DNA of 34,903 nucleotides from a virus. The notes beneath the pieces are model-generated. The model was not told the origin of the DNA and ran no database searches. It saw nothing but the letters and a program-made list of their open reading frames with translations. The stretch lies in IMG/VR virus record IMGVR_UViG_3300033402_000340, one strand, 5' to 3'. This document shows positions 26,908 through 28,018 of the stretch, piece after piece (position 1 is the stretch's first letter; every line of letters begins with the position of its first letter). A program made the position numbers and the translations under genes.

Positions 26908-27045
26908 CGAGGAGATAGGGGGTCGGTCCCCCACTAGCAAAGGGAGCTAGCCGAAAGGCGCAGCCGGCATTGCCACTCGGCTCTGAAAAGAGCCAACCAG
27001 CAGTTCCTACAAGCAAAAATCCAGGTTCGACTCCTGGCTCCTCGA
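26908..27045 (+). ncRNA. 138-nt tRNA-like unit A. It has an acceptor, D-arm and anticodon-like arm (loop AAAGGGA), then a ~65-nt module with two GNRA hairpins, then a T-arm and acceptor.
   Basis: Acceptor CGAGGAG/CTCCTCG. Module GCC-GAAA-GGC ... ACTCGG GGCTCT-GAAA-AGAGCC ... CCAGCAGTTCCTACAAGCA. T-arm CCAGG TTCGACT CCTGG. Confidence 0.4.
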
Positions 27046-27161
27046 CCGTGGTTAAGGTTCTGACTTCGAATCAGGCCGCCTTAATCGGGTAAGTGCAACC
27101 CAACCGTTATAGTCACCTAACTCATAGGGAGTGCCATGGTGAGTGTAATGGAGCACTTCAC

Positions 27162-27232
27162 GCCGTCGTAGTTCTCTGGGAGAACCCCGCTTTCGTAATG
27201 CGGTGAGGGTGGTTCGACTCCACTCGGCGGCT
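27162..27232 (+). tRNA. tRNA-Thr (anticodon CGT)
   Basis: Acceptor GCCGTCG/CGGCGGC, D stem GTTC/GAAC, anticodon loop TTCGTAA flanked by U.U, T-loop TTCGACT. Confidence 0.72.
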
Positions 27233-27260
27233 CTGAGGCACCCAATCAGTGATGCTTACA

Positions 27261-27330
27261 CGCAAGATGTTCCTAGGTGGAACGTCGGTCTGCTAAACCG
27301 AAGGGGCGAATTCGAAACTCGCTCTTGCAA
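27261..27330 (+). tRNA. class-I tRNA with serine anticodon GCT (4-nt variable loop)
   Basis: D stem GTTC/GAAC, anticodon arm TCGGT CTGCTAA ACCGA, T-arm GCGAA TTCGAAA CTCGC, acceptor 6 of 7 paired. Confidence 0.5.
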
Positions 27331-27363
27331 AAATCAGCATCACAACTCGGGTGCCACAATTTT

Positions 27364-27500
27364 GGGGATCTTGAGCAATGGCAGCTCAACAGTTGGTTAA
27401 ACTGTGTCGCAAGACAGTCCGGCATCGCAACTCGGTCCTGAAAGGGACCACCAAGCGGTTCCCACAAGCAATCCTGGTTCGAATCCAGGGATCCCCGCCA
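27364..27500 (+). ncRNA. 137-nt tRNA-like unit B with encoded CCA, with the same inserted two-GNRA-hairpin module as unit A
   Basis: Acceptor GGGGATC/GATCCCC then G CCA. D stem GAGC/GCTC. Arm ACAGT TGGTTAA ACTGT. Module GTC-GCAA-GAC ... CAACTCGG GGTCCT-GAAA-GGGACC ... CCACAAGCAAT. T-arm CCTGG TTCGAAT CCAGG. Confidence 0.45.
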
Positions 27501-27526
27501 AGGCAGCCAACCCGTAGTGCTAACAC

Positions 27527-27601
27527 GCAAAAGATGCTCCTAGGTGGAGCATTTCCCCGGAACGGAAACACTGGTCGGTTCAAATCCGACCTTTTGCACC
27601 A
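27527..27601 (+). tRNA. class-I tRNA with anticodon GGA (serine codon UCC), C33 instead of U33, encoded CCA
   Basis: Acceptor GCAAAAG/CTTTTGC, D stem GCTC/GAGC, anticodon arm TTTCC CCGGAAC GGAAA, T-arm GTCGG TTCAAAT CCGAC. Confidence 0.55.
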
Positions 27602-27647
27602 AAAACAGCACTACAACTCGGCTGCCTTAAACTTTCACAAAACACAT

Positions 27648-27785
27648 GAGGGATATGGGCGACGGCCGCCTACCAGTCAGTAAAACTGGCGCCGCAAGGC
27701 GTTCCGGTATTACAACTCGGCTCCTCACGGAGCCACTCAGTAGTACCCACAAGCATACTTGGTTCGACTCCAAGATCCCTCTCCA
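27648..27785 (+). ncRNA. 138-nt tRNA-like unit C with encoded CCA and the same inserted module
   Basis: Acceptor GAGGGAT/ATCCCTC then T CCA. Arm CCAGT CAGTAAA ACTGG. Module CGCC-GCAA-GGCG ... ACAACTCGG GGCTCC-TCAC-GGAGCC ... CCCACAAGCATAC. T-arm CTTGG TTCGACT CCAAG. Confidence 0.45.
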
Positions 27786-27886
27786 ATGAATTCCATGCGA
27801 AACATGGCCGCGAGGCGTCAAGCCAAGCGTAAATTTCGATCAGCTGCCCATAAGTGGCTGACTCGAAAGAGTAAAGGAAAAGTTAC

Positions 27887-28018
27887 GGGGACTTTTGGGC
27901 ACGGCGCCCAACTAGACTCACACTCTAGGCCGCAAGGCAGTTAGGTATTGCACCTCGGCCCTGAAAGGGGCCATCCAGCAATCCCCACAAGCATCCGGTT
28001 CGACTCCGGAAGTCCCCC
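27887..28018 (+). ncRNA. 132-nt tRNA-like unit D (canonical anticodon loop CTCACAC, Val-CAC) with the same inserted module
   Basis: Acceptor GGGGACT/AGTCCCC. Anticodon arm CTAGA CTCACAC TCTAG. Module GCC-GCAA-GGC ... CACCTCGG GGCCCT-GAAA-GGGGCC ... CCCCACAAGCA. T-arm TCCGG TTCGACT CCGGA. Confidence 0.45.

Follow-up and report, generated by a model that had tools for sequence, protein, structure and literature searches.

A conserved RNA stalk inside and around tRNA genes of giant phages

The IMG/VR virus record IMGVR_UViG_3300033402_000340, a stretch of 34,903 nt referred to throughout as the window, is part of a giant-phage genome and carries on its plus strand a tRNA island that starts at about 25.8 kb and contains 18 tRNAs called by ARAGORN. 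Within this island, eight tRNA-like units (A to H) share one RNA motif, a stalk composed of two helices (h1 and h2), an internal loop, and a conserved single-stranded tail. In units A to D, the stalk is inserted between the anticodon arm and the T arm. In units E and F, it is formed by a leader and a trailer around a complete tRNA, and in units G and H it encloses a circularly permuted tRNA. The motif recurs in many other phage contigs, where it also surrounds short hairpins. These multiple topologies (whole tRNAs, permuted tRNAs, short hairpins) are the most informative fact on how the stalk works: one motif that is found inside tRNAs, around tRNAs, with permuted tRNAs, and with other small RNAs behaves as a processing signal. 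We tentatively favor a model in which the stalk serves as a processing stem or as an intervening sequence that would be cut out, the tRNA parts being ligated or kept as two pieces.

One stalk in several gene architectures

The preliminary description of this DNA had proposed four tRNA-like genes with differing bodies and a conserved, structured module in the variable region. Folds and covariation support this view, and re-reading of the sequence confirms the positions of A to D, their 7-bp acceptor stems, anticodon loops, and T arms, as well as the CCA of B and C. Each of the four, 132–138 nt long, has a perfect 7-bp acceptor stem, a D arm, an anticodon arm, and a canonical T arm, with the insert lying between anticodon and T arms. 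The conserved core of the insert spans about 50 nt and comprises an 8-bp helix (h2), an internal loop the 5′ strand of which is NNCUC, h1 (6 bp plus cap), and the single-stranded tail YACAMGC. Its anatomy was derived from an alignment of ten sequences: A to D, five units of the syntenic relative L142, and one of L174 (L numbers are our handles for loci). Strand h2a has 8 nt with the consensus RGYAUYRC and is followed by a 5-nt loop ending in CUC. The h1 element is a 6-bp hairpin of variable sequence, usually capped by a GNRA loop and in unit C by UCAC. A second, A/C-rich loop of 5–8 nt then leads into the 8-nt strand h2b and the tail. The four units are as follows, with scores of the stalk covariance model (R1).

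26908–27045, plus strand: unit A, stalk-bearing tRNA-like gene with anticodon-like loop AAAGGGA; 73.1 bits. Acceptor strands 26908–26914 and 27038–27044, h2a 26966–26973, h1 hairpin 26979–26994, h2b and tail 27000–27015, T arm 27021–27037.
27364–27500, plus strand: unit B, Asn(GUU)-type, with G33, discriminator G73, and encoded CCA; 77.2 bits. Small hairpin 27406–27415, stalk 27421–27470, T arm 27473–27489.
27648–27785, plus strand: unit C, Tyr(GUA)-type, with A33 and encoded CCA; 64.8 bits, fold z-score −5.7. Small hairpin 27691–27700, stalk 27706–27755 (h1 cap UCAC), T arm 27758–27774.
27887–28018, plus strand: unit D, Val(CAC)-type; 72.7 bits. Stalk 27944–27993, T arm 27994–28010.

The module had initially been taken for a pair of GNRA hairpins. 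A small first hairpin is indeed present in all of A to D, but the conserved core is the stalk, the second hairpin of unit C is capped by UCAC, and about half of the 96 insert-type relatives described below lack the small hairpin, which is thus not part of the module. Likewise, the tRNA-Arg(CCU) at 30394–30478, regarded as a mini-version of the module, does have a short variable-arm hairpin but neither stalk nor tail. At 85 nt and with a variable-region hairpin of 3 bp capped by GAAA, it is unusual for an Arg tRNA; the hairpin is similar to the small one of A to D.

Neither ARAGORN nor the Rfam tRNA model (E up to 10) detects any of the four units. The minimum-free-energy folds of B, C, and D (ViennaRNA) show a cloverleaf with the small hairpin and the two-helix stalk. 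For unit A, the corresponding fold keeps the acceptor stem and the stalk, while D and T arms appear in the centroid structure only. The z-scores of the four folds range from −3.7 to −5.7. When the stalk is deleted in silico, ARAGORN calls unit B as Asn-gtt and unit D as Val-cac; over 35 units, its calls rise from 0/35 to 14–18/35.

The stalk also occurs in split form. Copies of ACTCGG had been noticed ahead of B and C and behind the 5′ halves of the loci that we designate G and H. These copies exist, but they are really the 3′ strands of the leader–trailer stalks of E to H, the 5′ strands of which lie 70–130 nt upstream. Units E and F follow the order h1b, loop, h2b, tail, complete tRNA, A/C-rich linker, h2a, NNCUC, h1a. 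In G and H, the tail is followed by T arm, acceptor 3′ strand, discriminator (with CCA in G), a spacer of 4–7 nt, acceptor 5′ strand, D arm, anticodon arm, and linker.

27237–27355, plus strand: unit E, stalk around a complete tRNA (Rfam tRNA 27261–27330, anticodon GCU); z-score −5.2. Leader 27237–27261 (h1b, loop, h2b, tail UACAC), trailer 27336–27355 (h2a, AACUC, h1a).
27500–27628, plus strand: unit F, stalk around a complete tRNA (ARAGORN Ser-gga 27527–27601, CCA encoded); z-score −7.0. Stalk strands 27500–27526 and 27607–27628.
28181–28328, plus strand: unit G, circularly permuted tRNA with loop CAUCCAA, U73, and CCA. Stalk 5′ strand and tail 28181–28212, T arm 28221–28237, acceptor 3′ strand–U–CCA–AUAU–acceptor 5′ strand 28238–28259, then D arm, anticodon arm, and stalk 3′ strand 28307–28328.
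28650–28792, plus strand: unit H, circularly permuted tRNA with loop CAGAAAA, G3·U70, and A73; z-score −4.6. Stalk 5′ strand and tail 28650–28680, T arm 28684–28700, acceptor 3′ strand–A–CUUUUAC–acceptor 5′ strand 28701–28722, stalk 3′ strand 28770–28792.

The folds of E, F, and H reproduce these leader–trailer architectures. The z-scores of E to H lie between −3.6 and −7.0, the stretch folded for unit G running to 28318 only, with h1 outside it. Unit H is flanked by tRNA-Phe and tRNA-Pro. The counterpart in L142 has the same neighbors, shows compensatory changes in h1, h2, and the acceptor and T stems, and contains a different spacer of 22 nt. Across the family, h1 mostly measures 7–12 bp where the stalk joins two strands, compared to 6 bp where it is capped, and either helix can be outermost. 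In whole-tRNA units, YACAM of the tail abuts the first base of the tRNA or ends one base upstream of it, depending on how the acceptor stem is drawn, and the tRNA starts with the GC of the motif.

Stalk, acceptor, and T-stem pairs all covary beyond shuffled controls. In the ten-sequence alignment, both stalk helices covary: 92% of the cells are paired, 8 of 14 pairs changed on both sides, and none of 500 shuffles reaches the score. A 32-sequence alignment shows changes on both sides in 12 of 14 stalk pairs; it was fitted to the model and is therefore biased toward the structure. In the acceptor and T stems, pairing reaches 98.8% and the covariation score is 0.90, versus 0.18 for shuffles. Moreover, of 35 units found by the stalk model alone, 34 have an upstream sequence that completes a perfect 7-bp acceptor stem, compared to 1.1 expected after shuffling of that sequence, which excludes chance. 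Covariation, together with conservation across dozens of phage contigs, rules out the earlier alternative that the units are tandem remnants of recombined tRNA fragments. No family in Rfam 15 matches the insert, either at the gathering score or at E up to 10. A likeness of h2 to the hairpin ribozyme or to group II domain 5, noted by eye, was dropped as h2 covaries like a plain helix. A hammerhead-like string, CUGAUGAG at 26860, was also discarded: the rest of the core is absent and Rfam gives no match.

The stalk family and its tRNA cargo

A covariance-model search of other phages, as the preliminary description had envisaged, recovers the stalk well beyond the window. Searches combined the R1 model with a DNA pattern, and insert-type units were delineated with a custom parser. 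The stalk is present in 15 IMG/VR loci, mostly on contigs of 360–436 kb, and more than 100 further matches fall on about 55 metagenome contigs of sediment, soil, or marine origin. Among 35 pattern matches in bacterial genomes, 34 are due to chance and one contig has real stalks (L216, 16.8 kb, binned as Methylobacter); this contig is probably a phage. Our first two DNA patterns returned chance matches only in IMG/VR.

In total, we collected 96 distinct insert-type units from 51 loci, almost all on environmental contigs from phages of about 360–436 kb, and 72 distinct leader–trailer units from 44 loci. A few of the latter are scanner artefacts or chance matches (chance rate of the scanner about one match per 100 kb). 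The leader–trailer cargos include 25 permuted tRNAs with spacers of 3–24 nt. Whole tRNAs account for another 16 according to ARAGORN, or for about 26 if cargo size and T-arm position are used as criteria. There are also 10 short hairpins (31–55 nt) and a few longer or ambiguous cargos. The short-hairpin stalks lie at these positions:

L016, minus strand: 3013, 3854, and 4967
L216, minus strand: 3331
L251, minus strand: 2786
L259, minus strand: 4446
L372: 2692
L391: 9096
L393: 8604
L396, minus strand: 6760

The short-hairpin units could represent either independent small RNAs or tRNA units in decay. One of these cargos holds the anticodon-arm-like sequence UCC-CUCAUAA-GGA. In L358 (572–815), a leader–trailer stalk surrounds a 199-nt cargo that starts with GCGUAACUAUAACGACCCUAAGGUAGCGA and has no Rfam match. 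We take GCGUAACUAUAACGACCCUAAGGUAGCGA to be near-identical to the helix 69–71 region of 23S rRNA, presumably also the I-CeuI homing site.

The predicted anticodon loops have 7 nt in 60 of 92 cases. Among these, C32 occurs in 83%, A37 in 85%, and A or C at position 38 in 98%. The discriminator follows the anticodon for Tyr(GUA), with A73 in 10 of 12 units, for Asn(GUU), with G73 in all five, and for Gly(UCC), with U73 in 8 of 9, as judged by the identity rules of bacteria; the discriminators of Ser(GGA) and CAU units misfit the expected identity. Five Tyr(GUA) units from different phages vary in their anticodon-stem sequences and keep the loop RGUAA. Because of the acceptor partners, the stem covariation, the loop composition, and the discriminator match, the sequences indicate that the stalk-bearing units are tRNAs under selection for charging and for the anticodon loop, not debris. 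With a genuine tRNA as cargo, the acceptor end must therefore be free and the body intact.

It is exceedingly improbable that the units are decaying tandem tRNA fragments, or a DNA-level element whose inverted repeats serve as a recombination or insertion site. A permuted order can arise by tandem duplication and truncation, and open reading frames (ORFs) of homing-endonuclease type are scattered through the island. However, compensatory changes keep the helices paired in 96 plus 72 distinct copies from many phages, anticodon loops and discriminators bear tRNA-like selection, and a DNA hairpin site leaves unexplained that either helix can be outermost.

Many anticodon loops read C-A-NNN-A-A, and position 33, nearly always U in other tRNAs, is often a purine, as in units B, C, F, G, and H. 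All 12 Tyr(GUA) units and three of the five Asn(GUU) units have A or G there. Colicin E5-type nucleases need a pyrimidine at position 33 before G34–U35, and the purine may thus provide an escape from host anticodon nucleases. The three bases following the discriminator in the 96 units are CCA (33), CCG (22), CUA (15), or CUG (11), that is, C-Y-R, a non-random pattern that hints at some constraint beyond a plainly encoded CCA.

The most frequent anticodon of the family is Tyr(GUA), and Gly, Asn, Val, Met, Lys, and Phe anticodons occur as well. Ordinary Tyr(GUA) tRNAs were found in four distinct loci only (L144, L146/L176, L172, and L391), with units of the A–D type in L391 alone. Since standard finders miss stalk-bearing genes, the tRNA sets of giant phages are under-counted, which matters most for Tyr.

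Excision, retention, and related systems

According to the model that we tentatively favor, the stalk would be a cis-acting stem recognized by a dedicated nuclease, which could be a phage or host enzyme or the RNA itself. The enclosed RNA would be freed by two cuts at the h2 base, one located 5′ of h2a and the other within the tail (ACAM|GC). The placement of the second cut is based on the tail abutting the 5′ ends of whole tRNAs and on the distance from GC to the T stem in insert units, for which 5 nt, the standard variable loop, is the commonest value (31 of 96, with 3 and 4 nt frequent as well). The tail of E and F would be cut at the tRNA 5′ end or one base upstream. In A to D, the two tRNA parts would then be joined, whereas the RNA excised from G and H would be circularized and reopened at the acceptor end by RNase P and 3′ trimming; the permuted units keep the order discriminator (often with CCA), spacer, 5′ acceptor strand. 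The ligase could be an RtcB-type enzyme such as the product of the ORF at 14088–15326. Without ligation, the parts would be held together as a two-piece tRNA. RNase P, the RNA of which maps to 32798–33134, would be needed to open the permuted acceptor ends and to release the tRNAs of E and F. Both RtcB and RNase P RNA are encoded in the window. The intron in the variable loop considered in the preliminary description thus lives on in a broader form.

Several observations speak against excision. Neither the approximately 40 ORFs of the window, which covers part of a genome of roughly 400 kb, nor the genes recurrent near the units include a candidate endonuclease or an EndA-like match. RtcB, a common phage protein, is encoded 12 kb away from the units and does not belong to the neighbors that recur within 4 kb; a scan for a specific RtcB–unit association, saturated by unrelated phage RtcBs, found none. 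Excision at the proposed sites would leave variable regions of 8–22 nt compared to the canonical 4–5 nt. A second ACAM-type site is not enriched in the 5′ linker (13 of 92 versus 18 in shuffles), and we abandoned the idea that the insert is flanked by a direct repeat or by a pair of identical ACAM cut sites. Further, a comparison with 720 ordinary tRNAs from the same phage loci revealed no stalk-less counterpart of any unit, the best match reaching about 60% identity. This gives no support to a recently mobile insertion, places the stalk-bearing tRNAs in a lineage of their own, and suggests that the stalk is integral to it. U33 occurs in 48% of the units overall and in none of the 12 GUA units, and U8 in 46%; with these positions so poorly conserved, the tRNA core may have co-evolved with the tail. 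Finally, four insert-type units (three of the 96, and L136:6763) have no anticodon arm and carry the stalk in its place, between D arm and T arm of a unit that retains its acceptor; excision would leave them pointless as tRNAs.

L174, 6200–6320: unit without anticodon arm
L136, 6700–6820: unit without anticodon arm
L174, 5640–5750: unit without anticodon arm
L216, minus strand, near 3672: unit without anticodon arm

Two of them (L174:6239 and L136:6763) combine the acceptor GGGCCGC/GCGGUCC with G3·U70, A73, and CCA, the acceptor identity of the alanine/tmRNA (transfer-messenger RNA) type. The G3·U70 pair is otherwise present in H and L359:2690 only.

These points bear on the main rival explanation, doubtful in our estimate but one to be reckoned with, namely that the stalk is retained as an extra arm or handle, a protein dock that marks, protects, modifies, or delivers phage tRNAs. 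A to D would then act as tRNAs of about 135 nt with a giant arm, while E, F, and the hairpin units would be precursors or small handle RNAs. G and H would be two-piece tRNAs, held by stalk and acceptor stem after RNase P has cut the spacer, as in two-piece tmRNA. Retention would account for the missing stalk-less counterparts, for the stalk replacing the anticodon arm (with G3·U70, A73, and CCA in two cases), and for the absence of a nuclease or ligase gene linked to the units. It also agrees with the sequences of h2, NNCUC, and tail being more conserved than the tRNA bodies, with the longer h1 wherever two strands are joined, and with a non-canonical tRNA core that combines the low U8 frequency with small D loops. 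Yet an arm of about 50 nt has no precedent in any known decoding tRNA, and no partner protein was identified. Moreover, E and F must lose the stalk through RNase P and 3′ processing, which means that it is not a feature of the mature tRNA there.

Excision could alternatively be autocatalytic, the stalk and tail forming a new small ribozyme with open or closed helices and RtcB sealing its products, which would end in 2′,3′-cyclic phosphate and 5′-OH. We consider this unlikely. A size of about 50 nt, conserved nucleotides concentrated in the internal loop and the adjacent single strand, the presence of RtcB, and the failure to find a protein nuclease among window ORFs and recurrent neighbors would all fit, as would the occurrence of the same core in circularly permuted connectivities, given that hammerhead and twister ribozymes exist in permuted forms. 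On the other hand, Rfam ribozyme models (hammerhead, hairpin, twister, twister-sister, pistol, hatchet, and hepatitis delta virus-like) do not match anywhere in 25700–29000 at E up to 10, and one ribozyme makes one cut while excision needs two.

A further comparison is with YrlA, a Y RNA that occurs in phages and is genomically linked to RtcB in Salmonella (RF02553; PMC4201824). Like YrlA, units G and H have a stem formed by the RNA ends that bears a tRNA-like module running from T arm through closed acceptor to D arm; the stalk is modular with variable cargo, as are Y RNA stems (PMC4201824), and RtcB is in the genome. The units could thus be decoys or tethers, a protein-binding stem plus tRNA mimic that does not serve decoding but acts together with RtcB and a Ro60/Rsr-type protein, which we regard as very unlikely. 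The YrlA model scores G at 16.8 and H at 18.2 bits against a gathering score of 69, and the tRNA-like core alone aligns. The Rsr-binding motif GNCGAAN0–1G, which Y RNAs carry near the 5′ end (PMC4201824), is present in 0 of 72 leader–trailer and 0 of 96 insert stalks, and no TROVE/Ro gene was detected in any examined locus (tblastn, probe Bxz1 gp220) or in the scanned ORFs. In contrast to YrlA, stalk units possess anticodon arms and open CCA ends, and in A to D the open acceptor ends with CCA and the matched anticodons and discriminators point to real charging.

For the processing model, the nearest known parallel is the bulge–helix–bulge (BHB) motif. Textbooks treat interrupted and permuted tRNA genes as a hallmark of Archaea and a few algae, in connection with the BHB and its endonuclease; circularly permuted tRNA genes are known in Cyanidioschyzon merolae, and the BHB junction has two 3-nt bulges separated by a 4-bp helix. 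In Archaea and algae, the BHB motif is found in introns, at the leader–trailer junction of permuted tRNA genes, and in rRNA processing stems (PMC3978253). Like the BHB, the stalk is one motif in three settings (intervening sequence within a tRNA, leader–trailer of a permuted gene, stem around an intact RNA), and the permuted order of 3′ half, discriminator (CCA), spacer, and 5′ half with leader–trailer pairing is seen in G, H, and 25 relatives. An RtcB-type ligase and RNase P are available here as well. Unlike the BHB, the stalk consists of an 8-bp helix, an internal loop of about 5 × 5 nt, a helix of at least 6 bp, and a conserved single-stranded tail. It also belongs to a bacterial and viral host system and is inserted at the 3′ side of the variable region, and its excision is a proposal.

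Two-piece tmRNA of alphaproteobacteria and of some cyanobacteria and betaproteobacteria, the pieces of which are base-paired without ligation (for tmRNA in general, see PMC3985003), shares with our units the permuted tRNA-like gene and, with some relatives, the lack of an anticodon arm and the G3·U70, A73, CCA combination. The units differ in having neither a tag reading frame nor pseudoknots, and most keep an anticodon arm, with many anticodons. Class II tRNAs (Leu, Ser, Tyr, Sec) also have an extra hairpin in the variable region, which the small hairpin of A to D resembles, but known arms reach about 20 nt, whereas here a stalk of about 50 nt is added in units with many anticodons. Group I introns are likewise intervening sequences of bacterial-type tRNA genes, in bacteria and phages. 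However, they have a conserved P3–P8 core, measure at least 200 nt, reside in the anticodon loop, and self-splice, in contrast to about 50–65 nt in the variable region here; Rfam Intron_gpI gives no match at E up to 10. RNase III stems, known from rRNA operons and phage T7 early transcripts, release an enclosed RNA from two helices, amounting to about two turns of dsRNA, and an internal loop in leader–trailer or hairpin form, a geometry with which the stalk is compatible (at least 14 bp plus loop). Unlike the stalk, they do not need a conserved tail or loop sequence, and a site within a tRNA body is unprecedented.

Gene architectures otherwise associated with the BHB appear in bacterial viruses on a different conserved RNA motif. 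Full-text literature searches returned no description of the stalk motif or of permuted tRNA genes in phages, and the huge-phage survey paper does not mention tRNA introns. The motif appears to be undescribed so far. The novelty thus lies in a different motif and a different host range, since disrupted and permuted tRNA genes with a processing stem are already known.

Extended to its full scope, the processing model would imply that giant phages own a pathway of RNA excision and joining that is independent of the archaeal/eukaryal BHB. In this pathway, the stalk, possibly a ribozyme or a nuclease target, would mark tRNA intervening sequences, permit permuted tRNA genes (the first in bacterial viruses), and package other small RNAs, including the short hairpins and the rRNA-like fragment. 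We regard this wider proposal as possible, albeit rather doubtful. If the stalk is excised, phage-infected bacteria contain a new nuclease or ribozyme together with a ligation pathway. If it is kept, the units are the largest-armed tRNAs known, some of them in two pieces. The motif is short, abundant in public metagenomes, and testable in vitro.

The tRNA island and neighboring genes

The companion genes of the island and its upstream region are the following.

14088–15326, plus strand: RtcB RNA ligase ORF (Pfam RtcB, E 1.6e-123)
18581–21139, minus strand: 852-aa ORF with major-vault-protein shoulder and repeat domains (domain match)
25253–25675, plus strand: endonuclease VII/HNH-type free-standing gene
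26317–26757, minus strand: endonuclease VII/HNH-type free-standing gene
30609–31886, plus strand: full-length EF-Tu gene with all three domains, inside the tRNA island
31940–32467, plus strand: endonuclease VII/HNH-type free-standing gene
32798–33134, plus strand: complete RNase P RNA of bacterial class A, inside the tRNA island (Rfam 287.6 bits, gathering score 100)
33699–34130, plus strand: endonuclease VII/HNH-type free-standing gene (weak zinc-finger match only; HNH-like as judged by eye)

RtcB joins 2′,3′-cyclic-phosphate or 3′-phosphate ends to 5′-OH ends. Its gene is followed by a DUF4326 ORF (15543–15812) and an unannotated ORF of 179 aa, and neither archease nor RtcA was seen around it (14088–16317). 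An ATP-dependent DNA ligase is also encoded upstream of the island, as is the vault-like ORF, which is about 43% identical to ORFs of published phages of 462–735 kb (LR756500, LR756501, LR756503). GenBank contains no close phage relatives of the region or of its EF-Tu, while EF-Tu relatives with 72–88% identity are found on IMG/VR contigs, mostly of 250–436 kb. The endonuclease VII/HNH genes are interspersed with the tRNA genes and, like a LAGLIDADG gene in L136, look like homing endonucleases that shuffle the island.

Of the 51 loci, 39 have a ThiF/E1-like gene no more than 4 kb away from the units. In 13 inspected IMG/VR and genome loci, this gene directly precedes the first unit; it is not beside the units of the window. 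This gene belongs to a cassette that encodes a vWA protein (624 aa), a protein of 313–331 aa, a JAB-like protein (207 aa, HSHx7SxxD), an 87-aa protein ending in GG, and the ThiF/E1-like protein (192 aa). The cassette, found in L136 (315–5518, where the LAGLIDADG gene interrupts it), L174, L254, L256, L261, L262, and others, looks like a ubiquitin-like conjugation system. Its link to the units may reflect conserved gene order, not shared function. The vWA protein was considered as a Ro60 look-alike and rejected: it has VWA domains only, and neither the protein nor its listed homologues match TROVE.

Three tRNA-like elements of the window, at 25731–25817, 26069–26135, and 32560–32640, are not called by standard tools and carry no stalk. 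They comprise a Sec-tRNA-like match (34 bits, sub-threshold), a 67-nt mini-tRNA (26 bits), and a T arm combined with acceptor-like pairing over 7 bp. ARAGORN further reports a permuted tmRNA at 33123–33756 (tag AGSGLCKACV*) that overlaps several ordinary tRNAs; this call is probably false and triggered by scattered T-arm and acceptor pieces. In the RNase P RNA, the stretch equivalent to J5/15 reads GGGUGUGCUGC, where we take the E. coli RNase P RNA to have GGGUAGGCUGC. By its sequence, the phage version could in principle pair with ACAC-type leaders, for example, the stalk tail.

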